A stretch of 28,184 nt of DNA, taken from the IMG/VR virus record IMGVR_UViG_2563366957_000012; one strand, 5' to 3'. The stretch comes from a virus. Taxonomy: Duplodnaviria; Heunggongvirae; Uroviricota; Caudoviricetes. Positions 1 through 26,679 of this stretch are shown here, piece by piece. Under the pieces are notes generated by a model that saw nothing but the letters and a program-made list of their open reading frames with translations, was not told where the DNA came from and made no database searches. Within the stretch, counting starts at the first letter, position 1; each line of letters begins with the position of its first letter. The position numbers were made by a program, and so were the translations under genes.

Positions 1-288
1 TTAACGGATCAACATCCAGATCAGCAGACACGCCACCACCGGCACAGCAAAATCCATCAGGCTTGCCACATCCCACGCGCGCGGATCAAAACCGCCCCAC
101 CACGGCATATTCATTCGCTTGCCATGCCCGAACATTTCAATCCAGCGATATTCTGCCTGGGTATGTTCACGCGCAATGAAGAACGTACAACCGGCTATCG
201 CTCCGTAAGCCCAGTTTCCGGTAAAAAGACCAACCAGTACCTGCGCAGCCACAGCACAAAGTGCATGAAGGAAAGGTGTTATATCCAT
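1..288 (-). CDS. Small integral membrane protein (95 aa, two to three predicted TM segments), last gene of the tail-fibre operon; function unknown
   Basis: Complete ORF (ATG at 286-288, TAA at 1-3). Strong RBS AAGGAGG 5 nt upstream of the ATG, lying in the 3' end of the upstream gene. Hydrophobic stretches LHALCAVAAQVLVGLFT and VASLMDFAVPVVACLLIWMLI. No family recognised by eye. Confidence 0.5.
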   Translation of the reverse strand: MDITPFLHALCAVAAQVLVGLFTGNWAYGAIAGCTFFIAREHTQAEYRWIEMFGHGKRMNMPWWGGFDPRAWDVASLMDFAVPVVACLLIWMLIR

Positions 289-298
289 TACGCCTCCT

Positions 299-1003
299 TT
301 ATCCGATATCGCTTCGGGAAACGGATAACAACTTTAATTCTGACTCAAGTTCATCAACTCTTTCAGTCAGCTTCTGGATATGGTGAATCAGTGGAACAAC
401 CAGACGTTCGTACATTACACCTTCGGCAACAAGGCCATTGCTGGAAATGGTTTCCGGTGCATCATCTTCGTTGGCTGGTCGCCAGTGAACAAACTGAGGG
501 GCAATTTCTCCTACTTCCTCGGCAATCAATCCATAGAATCCCCAGTCACGCCTGTCATTTTCGCATTGCGACCTGTACCACACAGGGCGCATCCTGAAAA
601 TGAGATCGGCGTGCTCTGAATCTATCGTCTCTACTGAATGTTTATAGCGGATAGACGATGTTGACCGCAGCACAGACGAAATTGCAGGGTCAGGATTAAG
701 ATAAAGATTTGCCGCCGCTGTAGTTGTGCCCAATCCCCATAAATAAAACGCTTCACGGCCAGTCAGCGGGTAAAAATCTCCGCCATAACGACCACTTTCC
801 AGATCGTTCACTTCCACTTTGTTTTTCAGCTTATTATCCACTTCTGTTTTTGTGTATCTGGTACTGATATCCTGCTTTGCACTGTCCATATCAGTCTGAA
901 GCGTTGATACTTTTACGTTAATTGAGGAAATATCTTCCTTTGCCTTACTGACATCTCCCTTTAGCGTTTTGATGTCATCAGGAATTACTGTCGATGTAGC
1001 CAT
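299..1003 (-). CDS. Tail-fibre-like protein: N-terminal coiled-coil region plus C-terminal intramolecular-chaperone (peptidase S74-like) domain, 234 aa
   Basis: The C-terminal half (SIRYKHSVETI...DLIFRMRPVWYR...GLIAEEVGEIAPQFVH...GVMYERLVVPLIHHIQKLTERVDELESEL) matches the conserved pattern of the autoproteolytic chaperone domain found at the C-termini of endosialidases and some tail fibres. The N-terminal ~70 aa are charged and heptad-like. RBS GAGGAAG upstream of the ATG at 1003. Confidence 0.55.
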   Translation of the reverse strand: MATSTVIPDDIKTLKGDVSKAKEDISSINVKVSTLQTDMDSAKQDISTRYTKTEVDNKLKNKVEVNDLESGRYGGDFYPLTGREAFYLWGLGTTTAAANLYLNPDPAISSVLRSTSSIRYKHSVETIDSEHADLIFRMRPVWYRSQCENDRRDWGFYGLIAEEVGEIAPQFVHWRPANEDDAPETISSNGLVAEGVMYERLVVPLIHHIQKLTERVDELESELKLLSVSRSDIG

Positions 1004-1012
1004 TTTTCTTCC

Positions 1013-1294
1013 TCACATCCAGCTACGGAGTTGATGCTCAACAGCAACCGCGTGTTCATCGAATAATGACGATATTTGCGAATCATTAATGATGCGCACA
1101 TTTACAAAATATCCGTCCTCCTTAACACATACCGGCTCGCCATCTTCAGTCAGTTCTCCGGTTTCTTTGTACACATTACCTATCACGTCAATAAGAATAT
1201 CATCCTGCATCGACTCGTCATCATAATAGCCAATGCTCTCCATAAAGGCCGAAAAGTCGGCCCTGTCGACAAATTTGAGTGTTAAATCTTTCAT
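1013..1294 (-). CDS. Hypothetical acidic protein (93 aa), translationally coupled to the side tail fibre gene
   Basis: Its ATG overlaps the stf stop codon (TAATG at 1292-1296). Very acidic composition (many D/E). It sits where a tail-fibre assembly chaperone normally lies but has no recognisable Tfa motif. Confidence 0.45.
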   Translation of the reverse strand: MKDLTLKFVDRADFSAFMESIGYYDDESMQDDILIDVIGNVYKETGELTEDGEPVCVKEDGYFVNVRIINDSQISSLFDEHAVAVEHQLRSWM

Positions 1295-3672
1295 TAGATT
1301 AACTCCCCCACCTGAGCATCAGTCAATGCCTTGTGCCATATTCTGAAATTCCTGACATGACCAAATAAATGGCGTAAACCGGCTGTAGTCTGGCCTCCAA
1401 TACGGATAATTGCGGAGTTCTGAATACAGGACCATGTGGTTTTTGTTTCGCTGGATATACGCCCGTTACTTACTGCGCATGTAGACTGATCTGACTTTAC
1501 ACGCATCCCCATAACCATTTTTTCAAGCGATGCATTTTCGTTTATCCGCCTGTTAGCCCCACCAATATCGCAATAAGGAAATCCGTCGTAATCTGCTGAA
1601 GAACCGAAGCCAAGAATAATAGCCGCTCCGGTTTGATGACCGCCGGTATCAAAAACACGCGGTGCTGCATTTGGCGTTTTATACCAGTTCTTATGTACCT
1701 CACAAAGAACCGTAAAAGGTAGATTATAAAGATTATTCTTAATTGGGACTGTAACTATATCGCTTGCCCGCGTTACCGGTGCAGCCCCCGTAACAATAAA
1801 AGATGATGCGCCTGTACCAGCCTCAATCTGGGGAGTGGTTACATCGAGACAATCCCCTGATGCCACCATCTGACCTGTATCCGGAGAATACTGGACGAAA
1901 CCACCAACCGTATTTTCTGTTGTATCTGCTTTTAATGTAGCCTCAAAAAATATCCAGCCAGTTGCATCATCCTTAACAGACCTTGCTGTAACACGGCTTG
2001 TCTGACCTGTCTTGCTAATTATGCGGGTGGTAAGGTTCAGGCTTGCTGTTCCTATTGATGTCCTTACCTCCCCATCATAATGTTCAAATAAAATACGAAC
2101 GTCGATATTATCAACTTCACTTTTTACCCGACAGGATATAGTTACATACTTTTCGTCCCCTGAAGTATCAACCCCTCCGGTACTCGAATACAGTCCGATA
2201 ATGGTATGCGCTTTACTTGTACCAACAATCGAATCCTGTACGACAAACCGGCCATAATTAAAACCGAAACTATCTGTGCCTGTTTCTGTAACGTCCAGTG
2301 AAGTTGACTTATTCCACTTCGAAGGGTCTGTACTGTTCGGGAAGAAGTTCGTTCTTTGCCCCTCAATAAGCAGGCCATCACGTTCAAATCGTGGCTCGTC
2401 AATGGTAGCCTCTGTCAGCACACCAGATTTATTAATGTAAGTTGCTTTTGATGCGCGTTTAAACTTAACCACCTTGTCACCAGGCATCGTTATTTCGTCG
2501 TCACCAATAACAATCTTTTTATAAGATGGCGAAAAGCCCGTAATCATATCCAGTGAATCGTTAAATGGTATCCACACATCAGGCAGCGGCTGTAAGACAT
2601 ATTTATACGGCTCCGCAGCCTGGCTTGCGTACTCTCTGGCTGCATCTTCGCTTGCTTTAGCTGCCGTCTGGCTTGCTGCCGATGCTTTCGCTGAGTTCGC
2701 AGCCGCTGTTTCGCTCACCTTTGCGTTGGTTTCACTGGTTTTTGCTGCTTTTTGACTGTTGGCTGATGCAGTGGCAGAAGCAGCCGCCGCGCTTGCAGAA
2801 CTGGCTGCGGCACTCTCGCTTTGGGCTGCTGCATCCTGACTGTTTTTCGCCGCAGTTTCGCTGGCTTTGGCATTCGTTTCGCTGGTCTTCGCTGCCGTCT
2901 GGCTGGACTTTGCGTTAGTTTCACTCGTCTTCGCAGCTTTCTGGCTGTTAGCCGCAGCAGTTGCTGATCCAGCTGCTAAAGTCACAGAACCGGCTGCCGC
3001 GCTCTCGCTTTGGGCTGCTGCAACCTGGCTGTTTTTTGCCGCAGTTTCACTGGCTTTGGCATTCGTTTCGCTGGTTTTCGCTGCCGTCTGGCTGGACTTT
3101 GCGTTGGTTTCGCTCGTCTTTGCGGCTGTCTCGCTATTTTTCGCGTTGGTTTCTGATTTTTTGGCTGCTGTCGCGGAGTTTGCCGATGCAGTCTTTGAGG
3201 TCGCTGCCGCCTGTGCACTATTAGCTGCATTCGTTTCTGAGGTTTTCGCCGCGTTCTTTGATGATGCCGCTGCAGTTTCGGATTTCTTTGCCGCCGCTGC
3301 GCTCTGAGAGGCGGCTTCGGCGTTGCGTGCCACTTCTTCCACCATTGCCTCAAAACGACGCAATGCCTCCGGCATGACATCATCTTCCGTCATGGCACCG
3401 AGAAAATCATTCAGCGTACCTGGTCTGGAACCTTCATAGACGGTAATGGTTCCGGCATGTGAAGGCGGAAAACCTTCAACCAGCAGGGTGACGCTGTACT
3501 GGCCATACTCAACATCCATGCTGTAACGCCCGGCTTCATCCGGATTTTCAGAGGCCACCGTGTTCACCAGTACCGTGGTGCTGTTACGCTTTGCCTTCAG
3601 TTGAATAGTGCAGTTCTGTATTGGTTTTCCCGCACCATCTTTCAGCACACCTGAGATTTTTACTGCTGCCAT
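1294..3672 (-). CDS. stf: Side tail fibre protein (Stf-like): lambda-Stf-type N-terminus, Ala/Ser/Thr-rich repeat region, C-terminal LamG/concanavalin-A-like lectin-type domain
   Basis: N-terminus MAAVKISGVLKDGAGKPIQNCTIQLKAKRNSTTVLVNTV...GRYSMDVEYGQYSV closely matches lambda Stf. The C-terminus ends ...RNFRIWHKALTDAQVGELI, typical of LamG-like jelly-roll domains. The ORF track extends to 3678 through a GTG; the ATG at 3672 has a GGAG RBS at 5-nt spacing and matches the lambda start. Confidence 0.85.
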   Translation of the reverse strand: MAAVKISGVLKDGAGKPIQNCTIQLKAKRNSTTVLVNTVASENPDEAGRYSMDVEYGQYSVTLLVEGFPPSHAGTITVYEGSRPGTLNDFLGAMTEDDVMPEALRRFEAMVEEVARNAEAASQSAAAAKKSETAAASSKNAAKTSETNAANSAQAAATSKTASANSATAAKKSETNAKNSETAAKTSETNAKSSQTAAKTSETNAKASETAAKNSQVAAAQSESAAAGSVTLAAGSATAAANSQKAAKTSETNAKSSQTAAKTSETNAKASETAAKNSQDAAAQSESAAASSASAAAASATASANSQKAAKTSETNAKVSETAAANSAKASAASQTAAKASEDAAREYASQAAEPYKYVLQPLPDVWIPFNDSLDMITGFSPSYKKIVIGDDEITMPGDKVVKFKRASKATYINKSGVLTEATIDEPRFERDGLLIEGQRTNFFPNSTDPSKWNKSTSLDVTETGTDSFGFNYGRFVVQDSIVGTSKAHTIIGLYSSTGGVDTSGDEKYVTISCRVKSEVDNIDVRILFEHYDGEVRTSIGTASLNLTTRIISKTGQTSRVTARSVKDDATGWIFFEATLKADTTENTVGGFVQYSPDTGQMVASGDCLDVTTPQIEAGTGASSFIVTGAAPVTRASDIVTVPIKNNLYNLPFTVLCEVHKNWYKTPNAAPRVFDTGGHQTGAAIILGFGSSADYDGFPYCDIGGANRRINENASLEKMVMGMRVKSDQSTCAVSNGRISSETKTTWSCIQNSAIIRIGGQTTAGLRHLFGHVRNFRIWHKALTDAQVGELI
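2690..3320. repeat. In-frame tandem repeats inside stf (about 192-bp period; two near-identical ~125-bp copies at roughly 2811..2937 and 3003..3127)
   Basis: Direct DNA repeats visible by eye (ctctcgctttgggctgctgca...ggctttggcattcgtttcgctggt...gctgccgtctggctggactttgcgtt). They encode the repeated peptide KTSETNAKSSQTAAKTSETNAKASETAAKNSQ.AAAQSESAAA. Confidence 0.8.
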
Positions 3673-3679
3673 ATCCACT

Positions 3680-3710
3680 CCACAAAAAAGCCCGCCTGAA
3701 CCGGCGGGCT
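3680..3710 (-). terminator. Rho-independent terminator between lom and stf
   Basis: 8-bp GC-rich stem (agcccgcc / ggcgggct, 3689-3696 and 3703-3710), 6-nt loop, followed on the minus-strand transcript by a U-run (plus-strand A-run 3684-3689). Confidence 0.6.
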
Positions 3711-3736
3711 GTCATAACACTGTGTTACCTGGCTAA

Positions 3737-4336
3737 TCAGAATTTATAACCGACACCCACGATGAAACCGTCAGTGCGCCAGTCGCCACTGCCGGAGCCT
3801 TCATAAGCAATATCAATGGCCACGGATTCGGTCGGGTTAAACTGCACGCCAGCTCCCCACGCCAGAGACGTGTTGCTGTGGCGATCGTCATCACTTCCGG
3901 TCAGCACATCGTGCGTTTTCCCCTTGTTGTCAGTTACGCGGAGATAATCCCCGGAGAACGTCGAAACACGGCTGTAAGCCACACCTGCCATCGCATAAGC
4001 ACTGAACCATTCATTCACGCGTACAGATGGCCCCGCCATCATGCTGAACCAGCGGTTACGCACTGAATCTTCATGCCAGCGGGTATCGCTGTAATGCGTT
4101 TTTTGCTCATCTTTGGCATTGGCATAACTGAATGACGTCACCAGCCCCAGCGTGTCCGTAAATTCATAACGGTATTTCACGTTAATGCCCTTCAGGTCAT
4201 CACTGCCTGGCATATCAGTATGGGTCTGAAGATACCCGGCGCTTAGTGTGGACTGATGCTCTGCTGCGCTCGCTGGCGTACCAGCGGCAACCAGCCAGAC
4301 TACTGCGGACAGAATAACAGCACATAATTTACGCAT
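3737..4336 (-). CDS. lom: Lom outer-membrane protein (Ail/Lom family beta-barrel), signal-peptide-bearing
   Basis: 199 aa, N-terminal signal peptide MRKLCAVILSAVVWLVAAGTPASA, C-terminal aromatic residue (ends GYKF), and the lambda position between J and stf. Confidence 0.85.
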   Translation of the reverse strand: MRKLCAVILSAVVWLVAAGTPASAAEHQSTLSAGYLQTHTDMPGSDDLKGINVKYRYEFTDTLGLVTSFSYANAKDEQKTHYSDTRWHEDSVRNRWFSMMAGPSVRVNEWFSAYAMAGVAYSRVSTFSGDYLRVTDNKGKTHDVLTGSDDDRHSNTSLAWGAGVQFNPTESVAIDIAYEGSGSGDWRTDGFIVGVGYKF

Positions 4337-4403
4337 AATTACCTCTCGCTTTTCTGCAATAAAAAAGGCACCATTTCTGGTGCCCGTATCTGGGTTATAA
4401 AAT

Positions 4404-7400
4404 TCAGCTAATCGTGATGCCTGCAGTGGCTTTCTTCATCACAACAACCAGCAAATCGCTGATACTTGCTGTGGGATACCAGCCATTTACCAGCCATGCT
4501 GACACCGAAAACTCCAGTGTCATGTGACCGTGACCGGCAGGCATATCAATAACGCCACTGTAAATCAGCGTATTATCCAGCGCGGTACGGTTATAAATTT
4601 CAGCACCGTTTTTCCGCACTATCAGACGGCATGAGGAGTAAATATCAGTATGCTCTCTCTCATGCTTAGCGCCACTGAATGCCACAGCCGGAATAACAAT
4701 TTGCCGGTCAAACGGCTGATCGTCATAAACCCTGACGGTAATGGTCCCTGATGGCCACCGCTCCGGTGCCCGGGAGTCACGGGGGAAAGCTTTGCCCACT
4801 GTTTTAACGAGATCGCCTTCAATCTGGTTCGCGGACAGTTTTCCCAGAACCCGGCAGTTCTCGTTAATCGTGACGTTGTTGAGCGTCCCGGAGTTCGCAT
4901 TCACGTTACCGCTGATATCGGCATTTTTCGCCGTCAGCCGCCCGTCCGGTGTCAGGGAAAATGCCGGAGGATTACCGCCGCTGGTAATGGTGGGGGCCGT
5001 CAGGCGCTTCAGGAACACGTCGTTCATGAATATCTGGTTGCCCTGCGCCACAAACATCGGCGTTTCATTCCCGTTTGCCGGGTCAATAAACGCGATACGG
5101 TTAGCGGCAACCAGGAACTGGCTCAGTTTGCCTTCCTCCGTATCCTCCATGCTGAGGCCAAGCCCCGCGACATAATGTTTGCCGTCTTTGGTCTGCTCAA
5201 TTTTGACGCCCCACATGGCATTCCATTTATCGTTGGCGTCCTTCCACTCTTTCGAAAACTCCTCCAGTTTGCTGGCGTTATCTTCCGTCAGCTCAAAGTT
5301 TTCCAGCAGTTCCTTGCCGAGATGCGTTTTATTGATCAACCCTTTATAAAAATTCAGATAACCTTCCGCATCATCGCTCGCCCGACCAACGGCCTCCACA
5401 AATGCCGATTTACCAACGGTGTTCACGCTGCGGATATAAAAGTAATAATCATAACCCGGCTTAATATTGCTACTGGCGGCTATCCAGTACAGCGCCGTAC
5501 CAAGATAACGCGCGCTGGTTTCAACCTGCCTGATATCGATAATCCGCTTTTCCGAGAACCAGAACTCAAACTGCACCGTCGGGTCATATACAGCCAGTTT
5601 CGGGACCGCTGTTATCTGAAAATACCCTGGTATCAGTTCAATAGTGACAGGCGCTGCCGGTGCCGCAATCCGGAACGATACCGATGCCGGATCGCCCTGC
5701 TGCCCCCACGCATTTACCGCCCGGACCGTCAGCGTGTAACGCCCCAGCGCCAGTTGCCTGAAGCGGTATGTGGTTTCCGTCGTCCGGGCCATGCTGACCA
5801 GCCGCTCACTGCCGTCGTCCGCTGCCACGGTAAGGCGAAGCAGGAAGCTCACGCCCTTCACCACCTTCGGCGTGTCCCATCGCGCCAGCACCTGATATTC
5901 CCCGCTGTCTGCGGTGACTTCGGCGGTCAGGTGCTGCACCGCTGGCGGCGTGACACCATTCACCGTGCCGCTCTGGTCGCCGTCAAAGTGCGCCCCGTTA
6001 TCCACGATGGCTTCTTTTTCCGGTACATGCTGCACGGCGGTGATGGCATACGTACCGTCATCGTTCTCCCGGATACTCACACAGCGGAACAGGCGCTGGC
6101 GCAGCGTCGGCAGCTTCAGCCCCCATACGCTGTATTCAGCAACACCGTCAGGAACACGGCTCACTTTTACCTTCACGCCGTCGGTGACGGACTGAACCTC
6201 CACGCTGACCGGATTGCCACTTCCGTCAACCAGGCTTATCAGCGTGGTACCGGAGGATGGCAGCGTGATTTCACGGTCGAGCGTCAGCGTCCGGGTCTGG
6301 CTGTTCACCGCCAGCACACGACCACCGGTGCTGATACCGGCATAGTCATCATCACAGATTTCAATGACATCGCCCGGTACATGGCGAAGCCCTTCTGCGC
6401 CCACGCTGAAGTCCACGGTCTGCGTTTCCAGCAGTTCCGTTTTAATCAGCCACAGCCCGGCGCGGTGTGCCTGCCCCCGGCTGGTACAGCCAAAGGCATC
6501 CATCTTCGTGACGTTACGACCGTAACGGGCAATGGCCTGCGTATCTTCAACAAGCTCTGTCGCCGTCTCCCAGCCGTTGTTCGGGTCAATCCAGTTCACC
6601 TCAACGGCATTATGGCGGTCCTTCAGGGCGCTGAAGCTGTAGCGGAACGGCGCGCCATCATCCGGCATCACCACATTACTGCGGTTATAGGTCCACACCT
6701 TATCTGATGGTCGGTCCTGCACGAACGTCAGCGTCTGCCCGTTCCATACCGGCATACAGCGCATCGCCGAGCAGAAATCACTGAGAACATCCCACGCCTT
6801 ACGCTGTGTGGTCAGCCAGGCATTACAGGTGATGCGCGGCTCCGTGCCACCAAAGCCATCCGGCACCGACTGGTCGCAATTCTGGCCGATGACATACAGC
6901 GCCCATTTGTCCACATCCGCCGCACCGAGACGCTTCCCCATGCCGTAGCGCGGATGGGTCAGCATATCCCACAGACACCAGGCCATGTTGTTGCTGTATG
7001 CCGGTTTTAACGTTCCGTCCCAGATACCGCTGTATTGCCGCGTCTGCGGGTTATAGTTCGACGGCACCTGCAGAATGCGCCCGCGAAGATGATAATTACG
7101 GCTCACCTGCTGACTGCCGAACTGTTCCGAGTCCACCTGCACGCCGACCAGTGCCGTGTTCGGGTAGCACTGTTTCACATCGATGATTTCGGTGTATGAC
7201 GACCAGAGCGTTTTGTTCTGCAGCTGGTCTGTGGTGCTGTCCGGCGTCATCCTGCGCATCCGGATATTAAACGGGCGCGGCGGCAGGTTACCCACCACCA
7301 CCGAGGCCAGATACTGCGAGGTGGTTTTGCCCTTAATGGTGATGTCTTTTTCCGTCACCCAGCCACCGTTACGCTGTATCTGAACCAGCAGGCGGACTTC

Positions 7401-7799
7401 CGACGGATTCCTGTCCCCCTTTGAGGTGGTTTCCACCAGTGCCTGCACGCCGAAAGTAAAACGCAGACGGTCGATGTTTGCCGACGTGATGGTCCGGGTG
7501 ATCGGCGTGTCATATTTCACTTCTGTACCGAGCACCGTCTCGGAGCCGGAGGATTCAAATCCCTCCGGCGGTGTCTGCTCCTGCTCACCGGCCAGGAACA
7601 CCACCGTGACGCCGGATATATTGGTATTCCCCTCACTGTCCAGCACCGGCGTACTGTTCAGCAGCACGCTTTTTAATCCATCCACCGGACCTTCAACCGG
7701 CCCTTCGCTGATGGCATCGATCACACTCAGCAGCTGCGTGGACTTCAGGTTGTCCTTCGCTTCGCGCGGGGTATGCCCCTTACTGCTGCCTTTACCCAT
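4404..7799 (-). CDS. J: Tail tip / host specificity protein J (central tail fibre), 1131 aa
   Basis: N-terminus [54 protein letters not shown] and most of the length match lambda J as I recall it. The C-terminal ~150 aa (receptor-binding region) diverge. GGAG RBS upstream. Confidence 0.95.
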
Positions 7800-7811
7800 T
7801 CTTCACGCTCC

Positions 7812-7842
7812 ATAAACGACAAAACCGCCCGCAGGCGGTTTC
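7812..7842 (-). terminator. Terminator-like hairpin in the I-J intergenic region (possible attenuator or RNA-stabilising element)
   Basis: 7-bp stem aaccgcc / ggcggtt (7823-7829, 7834-7840) followed on the minus transcript by UUUUGUCGUUUAU. Confidence 0.35.
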
Positions 7843-7859
7843 ACATAAAACATTTTGCA

Positions 7860-8507
7860 TCAGCGACCAATCACCACAACCTGACCACCATCACCTTCAT
7901 CTGCCGTGCTGATCTCCTGAGATACCACTCGCGACCCCACACGCATTTCACCGTACAGAACGGGCAGAACATTGCCCTGGGCAACCATGTTATCCAGTGA
8001 CGAGAAATACGTGTTCTGTTTGCCGTTATCTGTACTGGCTGCCGTGGGCGTCCGGGCTTTCGGTGCCAGCATCTGCGCCACACCACCCAGGATCATACTG
8101 GCCCCTGCTGCATACATACCCGATACAGCCGCGGCCCCCAGCCAGCCCACAGGGTTCCACCATGCCACCGCAATCAGCGCCGCACCCAGCACCGCCTGAA
8201 ACACACCGCCACTTTTGGCCCCCTCCAGACGCGGAACGATGTGGATCACGGCACCATTTGCCAGCGGCTCATTAAGACGGGCAGATAATTCGGTTTCACC
8301 TGCATCACGCCCGGCAATCCGTACCTGATACCAGCCGTCACTCAGTTTCTGACGAAACGCCGGGATCTGCATGGCCAGCGCCCGGATGGCTTCGGCCCCC
8401 GTTTTCACACGAAGGTCGATGCGGCGGCCAAATCGTTGTAAATCCCCGTAAAGGCAGATGCGTACCATGCCCGGTGACGCCAGAGGGAGTGTGTGCGTCG
8501 CTGCCAT
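7860..8507 (-). CDS. I: Tail assembly protein I, 215 aa
   Basis: N-terminus MAATHTLPLASPGMVRICLYGDLQRFGRRIDLRVKTGAEAIRALA and C-terminus ...NVLPVLYGEMRVGSRVVSQEISTADEGDGGQVVVIGR match lambda I. Its start overlaps the 3' end of K by 103 nt in another frame, as in lambda. Confidence 0.9.
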   Translation of the reverse strand: MAATHTLPLASPGMVRICLYGDLQRFGRRIDLRVKTGAEAIRALAMQIPAFRQKLSDGWYQVRIAGRDAGETELSARLNEPLANGAVIHIVPRLEGAKSGGVFQAVLGAALIAVAWWNPVGWLGAAAVSGMYAAGASMILGGVAQMLAPKARTPTAASTDNGKQNTYFSSLDNMVAQGNVLPVLYGEMRVGSRVVSQEISTADEGDGGQVVVIGR

Positions 8508-9148
8508 TTGTCGGTATACCTCTCTCGTTTGCTCAGTTGTTCAGGAATATGGTGCAGCAGCTCGCCGTCGCCGCAGTAAATGGCGGCATGATTCGGCACC
8601 GATGAACCAAAACAGCACAGCAGCACATCGCCCGGCTGCGCCGCTGACAACGGCACCTGATATAGCCCCGTTGCCTCCAGATTATCCAGATAGAGATTCT
8701 GACCGTGACGCCACCAGTCATCCTCACGATGAAAATCCGGCATCTCAATCCCCGCCAGATGGTAAGCATCCCGGAACAGCGTGTAACAGTCCGTCACCCC
8801 GTGCTCAAAGCGCCGCCCGGTGAGATGCGGCACACAGCGGAATTTATGAATCTCACCCCGGCAGACCAGCCACCACGGCAAATCACTATGCACCTGCAGC
8901 CGCCGGTCGGCCTCACTCAGCCAGGGCAGACCACCGGGGTGGCTGTGGACCAGCGCCACAATCTCACCCTGCATCTCTGCCCGCAGCCAGTCCTCCGGCG
9001 ACATCCGGAAATACTCCTCCGGCTCACCGGAGATATTCACGCAGGGAAAATATCTTTCCCCTTCCGGCGTTCTCACCACGAAGCCGCACGACTCCGCTGG
9101 CGCACATCGCCGGGCGTGCGCCAGAATCGCTGATTCTGTCTGTGTCAT
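8405..9148 (-). CDS. K: Tail assembly protein K (MPN/JAMM plus NlpC/P60 domains); long form 247 aa, the classical lambda annotation would start at the internal Met near 9004 (199 aa)
   Basis: JAMM motif HSHPGGLPWLSEAD (HxH-x7-S-x2-D) and NlpC/P60 Cys/His (DCYTLF, NHAAIY). The upstream ESCG glutamate lies only in the long form. Follows L with 3-nt spacing. Confidence 0.85.
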   Translation of the reverse strand: MTQTESAILAHARRCAPAESCGFVVRTPEGERYFPCVNISGEPEEYFRMSPEDWLRAEMQGEIVALVHSHPGGLPWLSEADRRLQVHSDLPWWLVCRGEIHKFRCVPHLTGRRFEHGVTDCYTLFRDAYHLAGIEMPDFHREDDWWRHGQNLYLDNLEATGLYQVPLSAAQPGDVLLCCFGSSVPNHAAIYCGDGELLHHIPEQLSKRERYTDKWQRRTHSLWRHRAWYASAFTGIYNDLAAASTFV

Positions 9149-9153
9149 GGGAT

Positions 9154-9852
9154 TTACTGCGAAAGTTTGTTAATGGAAAGGAAGCCGCCAAAGTTGCCGA
9201 CGTTATTGCGAAACTTACAGCCACTCAGGCATTTGCTGCATTTATCCTTCGTGATATCGGACGTTGGCTGGTCATATTCATCCGCGACAGCCGGGCCATC
9301 ATAACCGCACTCATCGCCGCGGTAGATCCAGGTGCAGGTGTTGGCCAGCATGATGCGCCCCGGAAAAACGGCACCGTCCGTTTCCGTCGGTGTGGACAAC
9401 ACAAAGGAGGCACTGACCGCGCTCAGTTCGCTGCACTGCTCGATGCGCCAGCGGCTGATCACCTCCTGCTCCGGATCGGCGTCACTGTTTCCGTTGACGA
9501 AGTTCACCGCATCCAGAAAACGGGCGTAAACCTTACGCCTGACCACCGTTCCGCCGACCAGACTCTGCAGGTCTTCCGCCATCCCGGTGACCATGCCGTG
9601 CAGGTTAGAGACTTTCAGCGTTGGTCTTGCACTGGCTCCTTTGCCGTTCATCTCAAAGCCGCTTCCCTGAATAGGGTACGCCTGATACTGTCGCCCCTGC
9701 CAGGTGACCGACTCACCTTTTTCGTTCTGCTCATTACAGAAAAAATAACGTTCTCCGCCGACCTCTGTCAGATCGACTTCCCAGAGCACGATCAGCGCGG
9801 ATTGCTCCGTTTTAGTGCACTCATTGAGTGTTTCCTGCTGTATATCCTGCAT
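9154..9852 (-). CDS. L: Minor tail protein L, 232 aa
   Basis: Same length as lambda L, with Cys-rich C-terminus (CSKCLSGC) and lambda gene order M-L-K-I. Confidence 0.9.
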   Translation of the reverse strand: MQDIQQETLNECTKTEQSALIVLWEVDLTEVGGERYFFCNEQNEKGESVTWQGRQYQAYPIQGSGFEMNGKGASARPTLKVSNLHGMVTGMAEDLQSLVGGTVVRRKVYARFLDAVNFVNGNSDADPEQEVISRWRIEQCSELSAVSASFVLSTPTETDGAVFPGRIMLANTCTWIYRGDECGYDGPAVADEYDQPTSDITKDKCSKCLSGCKFRNNVGNFGGFLSINKLSQ

Positions 9853-22514: not shown

Positions 22515-23054
22515 ATGGATATTAAAGATAAAATCAATACCATTTTGTTATGTGACATTGCCATCCACCTAGGTATCGAAACTGATATTGATCCACAGCT
22601 TGTTAAATATGCTGTGTCATCTGGTAATGATTGGGTTATCAAGGCCGAATATTCACATTTGGATGTTGACGAACCAAGTAAAGAAGATCGTGATTTTGTT
22701 ACTGCTGTCTTGAATATGTATCGCGGACTTTCCAATGCTTTCAGGAAACTTAGTGATGACGAGCAAAAAGAATTAGTCCGTGACCATCATCTAAAAATAC
22801 ATGATGGGGCAATTCAGCTCCCAGGTTTCGACGGTAATAATGAATGCGATTACTTCAGTATCATTGAGGCATATCAGAAAATTGATCGCTTCCCCGAACA
22901 GAAACAGCCCATTGCCAATACTCATTCACGTACAGAACATCTCTATAACGCAATGCTTGATGAGTTTAAGAAAATTGACGCTGTAAATCGAAGCTGGGAT
23001 TTATCGAAGGAAGAACTGGCATCCATTCTTTCCACAGCTCCACGCAGTTTCTAA
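22515..23054 (+). CDS. Moron: YfbU (UPF0304)-like cytoplasmic protein, 179 aa, opposite orientation to all neighbouring phage genes
   Basis: Only convincing plus-strand gene. Visibly more AT-rich than flanks, with its own terminator. Motifs (AVLNMYRGLSNAFRKL, LPGFDGNNE, THSRTEHLYNAML, LSKEELASIL) resemble E. coli YfbU as I recall it; needs confirmation. Confidence 0.6.
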   Translation: MDIKDKINTILLCDIAIHLGIETDIDPQLVKYAVSSGNDWVIKAEYSHLDVDEPSKEDRDFVTAVLNMYRGLSNAFRKLSDDEQKELVRDHHLKIHDGAIQLPGFDGNNECDYFSIIEAYQKIDRFPEQKQPIANTHSRTEHLYNAMLDEFKKIDAVNRSWDLSKEELASILSTAPRSF

Positions 23055-23481: not shown

Positions 23482-23964
23482 TTATCTGAGACATTGCTCA
23501 CGAATGTATAGCTGTGCCCCTTCCAGTTGCTTCTGCATCGTCATCAACCGTTCTCTGAGGGTGAAATAATCCCGTTCAGCGGTGTCTGCCAGTCTGGGGC
23601 TGGTTGCATTATCCACGCTGGTGGGTCCGGTGGCTTCACGCACGGCTGCGGAGCAACTGGCATTGACCCGCAGGCGCTTACGACCAGCGGCAACATCAGC
23701 GCGCAGAGTTTCATTTTCAGCTTTCGCATTGGCTAATTCTCTCGAGTACTTTGCATCGAGCGCAGCAACATCACGCTGACGCTGCTGCATGTCAGCGATG
23801 GTGGCGGTCAGCTGCTTCAGCTCACTGACTTTTTTATCACGCTGTTCTTTGTAGGTGATGGCGTTATCACGGTAATGATTGACCGCCCACGACAGGCAGA
23901 CGATGATGCAGATAACCAGAGCATAAATAATCGCGGCGACTCTGCTCACTGATCTATTCCCCAA
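23482..23964 (-). CDS. Rz: Rz inner-membrane spanin (i-spanin), 160 aa
   Basis: N-terminal TM segment and periplasmic coiled coil; sequence ([34 protein letters not shown]...[27 protein letters not shown]) closely matches lambda Rz. Confidence 0.9.
23544..23729 (-). CDS. Rz1: Rz1 outer-membrane lipoprotein spanin (o-spanin), 61 aa, embedded in Rz in another frame
   Basis: Lipobox LVVSAC and proline-rich mature region ([32 protein letters not shown]), near-identical in pattern to lambda Rz1. Wholly inside Rz. Confidence 0.85.
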
Positions 23965-24479
23965 CAGGCTAATGCGCTTTCCTGGTCACGACGAATAACC
24001 TGTCCATAGCAGTTATTTGAACGTATGCGGCAATCGCGCCCACCATCTTTTATCCACCAGCGAATCGCCTCGCATGCGCCCTTACGATCACCAGCATTCA
24101 GCCGCTTATAAAACGTCGATGGAAAACACTTACCGGGGCCAATGTTATAGGGACAAAATGACGCGATACCCGCTTTTTGTGGTTCGGTCAGTGGTACTTT
24201 AATATTGCGCTCCACCCATGCCAGCGCCTTATCACGCTCAATGGCGTTGACCTGGTCGCATTTTTCCTTCGACAGTTTCATACCGGGAAAAACGGGTTTT
24301 CCATCCACCATCGTGGCACCCCGACAGATGGTCCAGATGCCGGAACCATCGCGGTATGCCGTTGTGTGGTTACCTTCTTTTTCATCCAGAAACTGGTCGA
24401 GAATATCAGGCGCGGGCGCACCGACGGCAATCAGTGCCAGAACGGCAGCCGACAGGCCGTATCTGATTTTTGCGTTCAT
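23946..24479 (-). CDS. SAR (signal-anchor-release) endolysin, lysozyme-like, 177 aa
   Basis: N-terminal weakly hydrophobic Gly/Ala-rich segment ([18 protein letters not shown]) followed by a lysozyme-type catalytic domain. Paired with a pinholin-type holin as in phage 21. Confidence 0.8.
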
Positions 24480-24542
24480 GGATATTTATCAGGATTTATC
24501 GGTTTCTGCCCACGGACAGGTTTATCTGTTCCGGTCAGTGAC

Positions 24543-24893
24543 TTAAGGTTGTGATTCCGGAGGAGTCTTCAGAGAACCAGTAATTCTTCCTGGTAGCTTT
24601 CCTTTGTAGGTTATCCACACATTCTGCGCCTCTAAAATTACGGGGCGCTTTTCCGGCGACTGCTCATCCCCTTCACATAACCCGGCAGCAACATCCAGGA
24701 AGACCTGTCTGATGCTCCTTCTGGCTGCTGCCTCATAAAACTCCAGCGCGGCACCTTCAACACGGTCCAGCGAGATGTCCAGGTCAAAAATTTCGCCGTC
24801 AAAGCGTTTTTTGTCCCGTAACGCTAAAGTTACCGTAACTTTATTCTCAAAATTGCGGATCCCTTTCACAATCAGTTCATAGTTTTGAGTCAT
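24543..24893 (-). CDS. Hypothetical protein inserted between holin and endolysin (YdfR/DUF1327-like by position), 116 aa
   Basis: ATG 5 nt after the holin stop; soluble, no TM segment. Qin-type prophages carry ydfR at the same position. Family assignment is by synteny only. Confidence 0.45.
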   Translation of the reverse strand: MTQNYELIVKGIRNFENKVTVTLALRDKKRFDGEIFDLDISLDRVEGAALEFYEAAARRSIRQVFLDVAAGLCEGDEQSPEKRPVILEAQNVWITYKGKLPGRITGSLKTPPESQP

Positions 24894-24897
24894 TGAA

Positions 24898-25113
24898 TTA
24901 CTCTCCCCGTGCAGCCTTACGCTTGTCTTCTCTGATTTTGAAGTACAGATTTGTCAGATAAGTCAGGAAGCCCAGAACCAGACTCCCCAGTACACCAATC
25001 GCAGCCCACTGTGACGGACTGACCTGATCAAGCCACTGTAAAAACCAGTAGCCAGCACTGCCTGCGGAGGTGCCGTAGGCAATGCCCGTTGAAATTTTGT
25101 CCATGGATTTCAT
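24898..25113 (-). CDS. Class II holin / pinholin of phage 21 S type with dual-start motif (MKSM), 71 aa
   Basis: Sequence [70 protein letters not shown] matches S21 as I recall it. Met1 and Met4 give antiholin and holin forms. Strong RBS GGAGGTGAGG. Confidence 0.9.
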
Positions 25114-25857: not shown

Positions 25858-26679
25858 TTACCTAGTTACCTTTTTTAACTGCCGCTCAGCCCATGCTTCT
25901 TCAATATCAAACCGGGTCACCAGCGCATCATAGAATTTCTTAACTGTTTTTTCCCATGACGCGCGTGTTATCTGGTTTGTCACCTCGCATATAGCATTAA
26001 ATGCCTCCGTTGATGGTAGTCTTTCATAGCCACGACCACCACAACGCTGGCAGTCTCTGATAACAGGCATACCACGTTTTACCGACTCTTCACGATGAAT
26101 GGCGACACCACGCCCACGGCAATCCTTACAGGCGGTGGAAACCTCACCCTTTCCGCCACACTCCGGACAGGCAACTTTTACCACCTCCCTGACTTTTTCC
26201 CATTCTTCCCAGTAAGACGAATACACACCTTTCGTGCACTTTGCCCATACCGGCGGCTTACCATCCGGATACTGGACCTTGTTTGTAAAAACTACGCTTT
26301 CAATAAATTTTTCCCCATAGCAACAAGGGCACTGCTTTTTACTCGCTGCGCTGCGGGCATAATCCTCAAAAGCGTACGAAGCCATAATGCGCATCACTAC
26401 CGGTTTTATTTCTGCCGGAAGTTTTCTCAACGCCGCCACACGATCGCACCGACTGAGTGCATAATCTGCCAGTAATTCTGTTGCCCGCACCCTGTCATTC
26501 ATACTGATGCCCATTTTCCCCAGGAACGCAGAAAACCCCATCTCAGCCCGATTCTGTGTCATGCCCTGCGCGGCCATCACATCAGTGATACTCAGCGCAT
26601 CTTTTGACGTTGAGGCCGATGCATCGGTCAGGCAAGGGGATTTTGGGGAGTAGTATTTCGGCAAATCTTCCAGTTTCAT
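25858..26679 (-). CDS. Putative late-gene antiterminator Q (QuuQ/Q82-like) with Cys-rich zinc-finger motifs, 273 aa
   Basis: Position between RusA and the PR'-like promoter. CxxC repeats (CPCC, CPECGGKG, CKDCRGRG, CQRCGGRG). Start overlaps the rusA stop (ATGA). Family assignment rests mainly on synteny. Confidence 0.55.
   Translation of the reverse strand: MKLEDLPKYYSPKSPCLTDASASTSKDALSITDVMAAQGMTQNRAEMGFSAFLGKMGISMNDRVRATELLADYALSRCDRVAALRKLPAEIKPVVMRIMASYAFEDYARSAASKKQCPCCYGEKFIESVVFTNKVQYPDGKPPVWAKCTKGVYSSYWEEWEKVREVVKVACPECGGKGEVSTACKDCRGRGVAIHREESVKRGMPVIRDCQRCGGRGYERLPSTEAFNAICEVTNQITRASWEKTVKKFYDALVTRFDIEEAWAERQLKKVTR

Follow-up and report, generated by a model that had tools for sequence, protein, structure and literature searches.

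The 28,184-nucleotide (nt) stretch of Caudoviricetes DNA recorded in IMG/VR as IMGVR_UViG_2563366957_000012, an E. coli prophage referred to in full length as the window, carries at its very start a complete gene of 95 amino acids (aa) on the minus strand (288..1, ATG at 288-286 and TAA at 3-1). As judged from hydropathy and structure prediction, its product is very probably a stand-alone three-helix cytoplasmic-membrane protein and a member of a widespread family. In phages of all three tail types the family gene directly follows a gene for a receptor-binding protein, and single copies are also found in bacterial chromosomes. Among the roles considered for it, envelope-level protection or exclusion is the one we tentatively favour.

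The 95-aa gene and its protein family

On sequence grounds the 95-aa open reading frame (ORF) is a real gene, because all of its residues (1-95) align with the profile of PHROG 1443 (positions 1-95 of 97, E 2.5e-58), 574 homologues came out of a word-indexed search at E <= 1e-3, 446 clusters were obtained when 1.84 billion representatives were searched exhaustively with a profile, and 23 columns are invariant in an alignment of 52 sequences that are 55-95% identical to the query. The product is 100% identical to a 95-aa protein encoded by phage PhiR55_1. Among the 446 clusters, the best 150 range from 63 to 146 aa in length and include no fusion to another domain. Members from alpha-, beta-, gamma- and deltaproteobacteria still share 45-60% identity and the invariant motifs of the loop, and within E. 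coli the divergence is too low for an informative ratio of nonsynonymous to synonymous substitutions.

The translation signals were read directly from the minus strand. The Shine-Dalgarno element AAAGGAGG (300..293) is followed by CGTA and then by the ATG, so that the spacer is 4 nt and not the 5 nt given in the initial annotation; the element shares bases with the stop codon TAA (301..299) of the 234-aa gene upstream, from which the 95-aa gene is separated by 10 nt. The GC content of 53%, against 40-46% in the neighbouring distal fibre genes, is the deviating base composition that is looked for in a moron. The other mark of a moron, a promoter of its own together with a downstream terminator, was not found: a crude consensus scan predicts no sigma-70-like site, the upstream gene is only 10 nt away, and a hairpin past the stop codon in locus L157 has no clear U-tract. 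An antisense ORF of 157 aa (124..597, plus strand), which straddles a mosaic breakpoint at about position 300, where the similarity of many related phages stops, is very unlikely to be a gene.

Database searches leave the family without any characterised relative, in agreement with the initial annotation, which had recognised none. PHROG 1443 has no assigned function (it appears as 'Ybl63' in one source), and the only other PHROG matched, 34165, is equally function-less. Nine diverse members gave no match in Pfam or NCBIfam even at E <= 10, no PADLOC defence model matched the family at E <= 1, and a sequence search of the PDB returned nothing beyond one chance match (E 0.8). The profile and structure searches that had been proposed at the outset thus revealed no structural or assembly homologue, and we found no literature on the family. 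Members are named 'hypothetical protein' in the databases, once 'Ybl63' and once 'prolipoprotein diacylglyceryl transferase'; this last UniRef name, of an Aeromonas member, is spurious (hhalign probability 0.2% against an E. coli Lgt sequence).

Concerning the protein itself, Kyte-Doolittle hydropathy is high at residues ~4-38 and 77-94, and AlphaFold2, supplied with the 52-sequence homologue alignment, predicts helices at 4-23, 26-52 and 74-94 (mean predicted local distance difference test score, pLDDT, 94.3; predicted template modelling score, pTM, 0.78). Both bear out the first description of the product as a small protein with several hydrophobic segments, and membrane insertion, for which a topology check had been suggested, is indeed predicted. 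The invariant residues are H8, R40, E41, Q44, E46, R48, W64, G65, G66, W72, D79 and P83. They belong to a conserved core in which H8 is followed by the motif [AG]-R-E-x-[TA]-Q-[AN]-E-[YQ]-R where helix 2 ends, by a loop rich in Trp that reads NMPWWGGFD in the majority of members, by R-x-W, and by D79-x-x-x-P83 where helix 3 begins. Owing to the order of the helices, the model places all of them on the same side of the membrane, namely where helix 1 starts, where helix 2 ends, in the nearly invariant 39-residue loop that joins helices 2 and 3, and where helix 3 starts. Counts of Lys and Arg (5.2 against 2.2) favour a cytoplasmic loop. The C-terminal tail is a single Arg in the 95-aa protein and is basic in many homologues, with an average net charge of +1.5.

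On paper, the tetrapeptide I31-A32-G33-C34 has the form of a lipobox. The protein can nevertheless be ruled out as a lipoprotein because this tetrapeptide is embedded in predicted helix 2, neither Lys nor Arg occurs at the N-terminus (MDITPFL), and Cys34 is missing from alphaproteobacterial and distant phage homologues. The initial annotation had likewise seen no functional lipobox.

Placement behind receptor-binding genes and copies outside phages

Linkage was examined at 156 further, diverse loci, which came from scanning IMG/VR twice with distant members of the family. At 152 of these loci an ORF in the same direction terminates no more than 400 nt upstream of the family gene. Clustered at 60% identity, these upstream ORFs form 83 clusters, many of 400-800 aa, and one representative of each was annotated. 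Among the 25 commonest PHROGs of the upstream genes, all those with an annotated function are tail spike, tail fibre, tail protein or pre-neck appendage. Counted as family totals only, and hence as lower bounds, phrog_1171 ('tail spike') matches at least 25 of the 83 representatives and a colanic-acid-degrading spike at least 13, while the Pfam totals are at least 16 for the pectate-lyase-like beta-helix, 14 for Peptidase_S74, 5 for the endosialidase N-terminal extension and 4 for Beta_helix. The median distance from the receptor-binding gene to the family gene is 9 nt, and in 51 of the 83 cases the two are at most 30 nt apart or overlap; where the gap is near 300 nt, a small ORF sometimes intervenes, unrelated to the 93-aa neighbour found in the window (see below).

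The downstream neighbours follow no pattern and include UmuD-like proteins, endolysins, Avd, and scaffold, sheath and portal proteins. Since receptor-binding genes dominate upstream and the downstream genes are patternless, the conserved unit is a receptor-binding gene followed by the family gene, the second near-constant and the first freely varying. The linkage holds for sipho-, myo- and podoviruses and for any type of spike or fibre, in the same orientation. No conserved partner gene exists besides, as the 93-aa neighbour is specific to Escherichia and the downstream genes are heterogeneous. The initial annotation had placed the gene in a cargo slot behind the tail fibres. The position is correct, but the gene does not look like a free-standing cargo in a generic slot, being the immediate and often overlapping partner of 83 receptor-binding clusters.

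The same arrangement is seen in annotated phages. In many lambda-like phages the family gene comes after the side tail fibre gene, and in some of them the order is Stf, a 92-aa gene and the family gene, with the S74 fibre absent. It follows the tailspike gene in the P22-like phages JEP4, where its start overlaps the spike stop, and vB_EcoP-611R6, where it adjoins an OafA-type O-acetylase gene just before the integrase. It also comes after the tail-fibre assembly gene in the myovirus phiHAP-1, after J in Comamonas prophages, and after an S74-type fibre gene amid the baseplate operon in a P2/HP1-like Leclercia prophage; in Aeromonas phages of ~235 kb it precedes a putative tail fibre gene. Only decayed fragments remain behind an S74-type fibre gene in the virulent phages 6947, ZCEC08, HC8A and anhysbys. 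That of Escherichia phage 6947 (locus L006, 3965-4120) is a 51-aa remnant directly after the fibre gene, and that of anhysbys has 42 aa (BFVD entry A0A6B9XIW9). Among complete E. coli genomes, 1906 of 5426 (35%) hold at least one copy, the carriers having a median of two and up to seven, and the BL21/C41 lineage is among them.

Copies outside phages were sought in data with one genome per species. Aeromonas has a single copy at a fixed chromosomal locus with no phage genes nearby, with pirin upstream and, on the opposite strand, a RIO1/Kdo-kinase-like gene and two lpxL-like lipid A acyltransferase genes. The Alphaproteobacteria carry single copies at varied loci, by ligA, in the gap between ftsA and ftsZ, overlapping a DsbA-like gene, or by genes for PAS kinases or a hydantoinase. 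On alphaproteobacterial metagenome contigs (L171-L173, L333) the family gene is inserted between ftsA and ftsZ together with genes for a major facilitator superfamily (MFS) transporter and a PhyH-like protein. There is no conserved chromosomal operon, the contexts differing between the Aeromonas and alphaproteobacterial lineages, and so they give no clue to function.

A copy is also retained in decayed prophages. In the Rac remnant of E. coli B/C41 it stands intact, flanked by pseudogenised fragments of stf and tfa and with pinR adjacent; in C41(DE3) (NZ_CP010585.1, 1403109-1413400) this remnant contains intact genes of 92 and 97 aa, of which the 97-aa one is the family member named 'Ybl63' in UniRef. 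A copy in Silvania adjoins ompN- and ydbK-like genes, and we infer that it is another Rac-like remnant because such genes also border the Rac remnant of C41. The chromosomal and decayed-prophage copies together mean that the protein works without a phage partner and that hosts keep it. The first view of the gene as phage cargo therefore stands as far as it is phage-borne, but not in the sense of being solely so, given the single chromosomal copies in Aeromonas and Alphaproteobacteria.

Candidate functions

Judged from its sequence, the 95-aa protein lacks those defining features of Cor/Llp, Imm/SieA and the seroconversion cassettes that can be checked in this way, namely the lipobox, homology and an own promoter. 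With Cor (phi80, N15, HK022, T1) and Llp (T5) it shares being a small envelope protein that is encoded by the receptor-binding or tail-fibre genes and is dispensable for virion structure. Those two are, however, outer-membrane lipoproteins with a signal peptidase II lipobox, each specific for one receptor (FhuA), whereas the 95-aa product is a predicted three-helix membrane protein with no usable lipobox or charged n-region, has no similarity to Cor or Llp in PHROG, Pfam or NCBIfam, and stays constant while its neighbour varies; that it is not a Cor-type lipoprotein had been correctly anticipated. T4 Imm, P22 SieA and HK97 gp15, small inner-membrane proteins that act alone and block incoming DNA, offer the closest functional analogy to the mechanism favoured here. 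To judge by the PHROG matches, they show no detectable homology to the 95-aa protein, and they are lineage-restricted and made early or in the lysogen, while the family is present in several proteobacterial classes, in phages of all three tail types and in chromosomes, and in the window its gene looks late-expressed.

Transcription of the gene was considered from the signals around it. No sigma-70-like promoter on the coding strand turned up in a crude consensus scan of positions 1-4400 of the window and 6900-9400 of locus L157, and the scan located terminator-like hairpins with a T-run upstream on the minus strand, in the gap between lom and stf (3710..3689) and in that between J and lom (4385..4366). 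For these reasons the fibre genes and the 95-aa gene are probably transcribed by the Q-antiterminated, terminator-resistant late polymerase, and co-expression with the fibres late in the cycle appears more likely than expression in the lysogen. These two strong hairpins bracket lom and would insulate it as a separate unit, and the fibre genes would then need antiterminated transcription.

In the mechanism that we propose, the 95-aa gene would be transcribed with the side tail fibre genes by the Q-antiterminated polymerase and translated from its strong Shine-Dalgarno element. The protein would insert in the inner membrane and act alone, using the conserved site at the membrane interface, on an envelope component of the host that is itself conserved across Proteobacteria, and the outcome would be protection or exclusion at the level of the envelope. 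It may block a membrane step in the attack of an incoming phage or tailocin, or it may interfere with the assembly of surface glycans that are recognised by the partner receptor-binding proteins. A role of this kind is favoured, if only tentatively, because cor, llp, gtr and oac occupy the place behind receptor-binding genes or that between the tailspike gene and the attachment site (att), because hosts domesticate the family gene, and because the partner genes mostly encode glycan-degrading spikes.

Several observations weigh against such a role. The protein is nearly the same whatever the receptor-binding protein or the host, and a masking of one specific receptor, as by Cor or Llp, can be excluded; none of the searches in Pfam, NCBIfam, PDB and BFVD gave a homology or fold match that hints at an activity. 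The lack of a predicted promoter and the upstream hairpins suggest expression in the late phase only, an unusual pattern for a prophage exclusion gene. Some virulent E. coli phages (anhysbys and the siphophages 6947, ZCEC08 and HC8A) have let the gene decay and can thus dispense with it. Finally, the cues for orientation conflict, as the Lys and Arg counts favour a cytoplasmic loop and the basic C-terminal tails a periplasmic one.

A somewhat less probable reading is that the gene serves host physiology and that phages carry it as a passenger with a benefit unrelated to exclusion, the protein acting in inner-membrane homeostasis, as a small transporter-like protein (for an ion, a metal or a lipid) or as regulator of a membrane machine. 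The chromosomal single copies in non-phage contexts (the fixed Aeromonas locus; the alphaproteobacterial copies near ftsZ, ligA and the DsbA-like gene), the copy kept in a decayed prophage and the clustering of invariant His, Glu, Asp and Arg at one membrane interface would all fit, but the near-constant placement directly 3' of a receptor-binding gene is left unexplained, and neither a conserved operon partner nor a transporter-like fold was found. We consider it unlikely that the protein is an accessory holin, an antiholin or a modulator of lysis timing synthesised alongside the final virion components. A position behind tail-fibre genes is common for holins, T7 gp17.5, T4 t and those of many Gram-positive phages being examples; an endolysin gene lies directly downstream in a minority of the viral contigs, late expression is probable, and the family, with about 100 aa, three membrane helices and a C-terminal tail that is basic in many homologues, resembles class I holins such as lambda S and P22 gp13. 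Against this, its near-invariant 39-residue loop and its conservation across four proteobacterial classes are unlike holins, the chromosomal single copies have no adjacent endolysin gene, and the tail has only one residue here. Moreover, a separate lysis cassette 23 kb away speaks against the protein being the holin of this phage, and hhalign gives a probability of 0.9% for similarity to the 71-aa holin-like ORF of that cassette.

Lysogenic conversion, that is, a modification of the O antigen or capsule in the lysogen as by gtrABC or oac, is still less probable. P22-like phages do carry the family gene in the very slot between tailspike and att/int that holds P22 gtrABC, Sf6/Sf101 oac, CUS-3 neuO and epsilon15 genes 21/22 next to glycan-specific spikes, it adjoins the O-acetylase gene in 611R6, and its upstream partners are mostly glycan-degrading spikes. 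The 95-aa protein is, however, far smaller than glycan-modifying enzymes and unrelated to them, with no homology to Gtr, Oac, Wzy or Iap in Pfam, NCBIfam or PHROG, it is invariant across glycan types, and its gene is usually translationally coupled to the spike, with no predicted promoter and with terminator-like hairpins upstream. The family also occurs in the Aeromonas phages of ~235 kb and in sphingomonads, which are not known to have classical lipopolysaccharide. The hyp24 of phage Kapi1, which was tested for seroconversion (PMC8787464), is a 34-aa reverse-strand ORF and not a homologue. The least probable of these readings, and a very improbable one, is a factor for assembly or quality control that would fold, mature or attach the upstream receptor-binding protein. 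The tight, often overlapping coupling at the usual site of tail-fibre chaperones and the frequent association with Peptidase_S74-type fibres speak for it, but fibres fold in the cytoplasm whereas an integral membrane protein is predicted, essentially one and the same protein follows 83 unrelated receptor-binding clusters, and the gene is present in chromosomes without any fibre gene. Nor is there any match in Pfam or PHROG to the soluble tail-fibre chaperones (Tfa/Caudo_TAP, DUF4376, gp38-like) or to other chaperone families. About a fifth of the weight goes to something outside the explanations listed.

A bolder form of the exclusion reading, which we regard as rather unlikely, is that the family would be a universal companion of receptor-binding cassettes, one inner-membrane protein travelling with hundreds of spikes and fibres and disabling, for glycan-targeting phages or tailocins, a conserved envelope step such as inner-membrane DNA passage or lipid-linked glycan assembly; Aeromonas, sphingomonads and E. 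coli B would repeatedly have domesticated it as broad-spectrum immunity.

The relevance of the family lies in its breadth, from E. coli prophages, often in several copies per genome, to Aeromonas, Comamonas, sphingomonads and jumbo phages, for a protein that has no Pfam model. What is new here is that the family gene is linked, in a fixed orientation, to the receptor-binding genes of different types of phage, and that domesticated chromosomal copies exist. The near-obligatory placement provides an annotation rule, since the gene marks the 3' boundary of spike and fibre cassettes, and it suggests a function in host recognition, release or exclusion, which would be missing from current models of phage-host interaction. 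The small size, the lack of a conserved partner and about a dozen invariant residues leave the hypothesis open to simple genetics. If the protein merely tunes membrane physiology, the interest would be modest.

Surroundings of the gene in the window

The minus-strand order of the window, J (4404-7799), lom (3737-4336), Stf, a 93-aa gene, a 234-aa fibre-domain gene and the 95-aa gene, agrees with the first assignment of the latter to the distal end of the tail-fibre operon, and in genomes that encode the identical protein it is the last gene before the prophage end. The 794-aa side tail fibre Stf (1294..3678, minus strand) combines a prophage tail-fibre domain at its N-terminus with Ala-rich repeats and, at its C-terminus, a domain like that of the GTA head spike fibre. 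Its Ala/Ser/Thr-rich repeats (SETNAK, AAKTSETNA), at ~2520-3400 on the minus strand, have a local GC content of 55-56% and a strong AT skew. The 93-aa protein (1013..1294, minus strand) belongs to PHROG 1361, with no function assigned; in some E. coli phages a gene of this type sits directly between the side tail fibre gene and the membrane-protein gene.

The upstream partner of the 95-aa gene encodes the 234-aa tail-fibre-domain protein (299..1003, minus strand), which combines a coiled coil with a Peptidase_S74 intramolecular-chaperone domain at its C-terminus (Pfam PF13884, E 4.6e-6) and matches PHROG 3299, without function, as well as several tail-fibre PHROGs (e.g. 454, 1699 and 1980). 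This 'fibre' is made up of just a short N-terminal segment, the coiled coil and the self-cleaving Peptidase_S74 domain, and after cleavage the mature product would have ~115 aa. At the same position related phages have versions of 227 or 346 aa, or none.

The end of the window at position 1 coincides with the TAA of the 95-aa gene, and many IMG/VR prophage contigs (e.g. L008, L010 and L012) also stop at, or a few bases past, the stop codon of the family gene. The boundary is consequently a product of prophage calling at the gene end and not a true att site. An inspection of the sequence further downstream for more cargo had been suggested; in genomes with the identical protein it shows the prophage end, with ~1 kb of non-coding DNA in some and dinI and an integrase gene on the opposite strand in others. 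In locus L157 a stable hairpin (8289-8345, -23 kcal/mol, z-score -3.7) without a clear U-tract begins 9 nt past the stop codon. About 370 nt beyond it, within the ~1 kb stretch, lies a tRNA 3' fragment (~8640-8700) which, by eye, we take to be of the serU type and which is probably the att site; ARAGORN reports no complete tRNA there.

The lysis cassette (23482-25113, minus strand) is preceded by the gene for the Q antiterminator (25858-26679). Its first gene is the 71-aa holin-like ORF (24898..25113, minus strand), presumably a holin of the S21/EssD type, and it further contains the endolysin (phrog_7) and Rz spanin (phrog_13) genes. A 116-aa YdfR-like protein, with no function assigned, is encoded between the 71-aa ORF and the endolysin gene. 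On the plus strand, antisense to the late operon, a 179-aa ORF (22515-23054; PHROG 6084, no function) sits between the Rz spanin gene and the HNH endonuclease and terminase genes, and may be an independently transcribed cargo.

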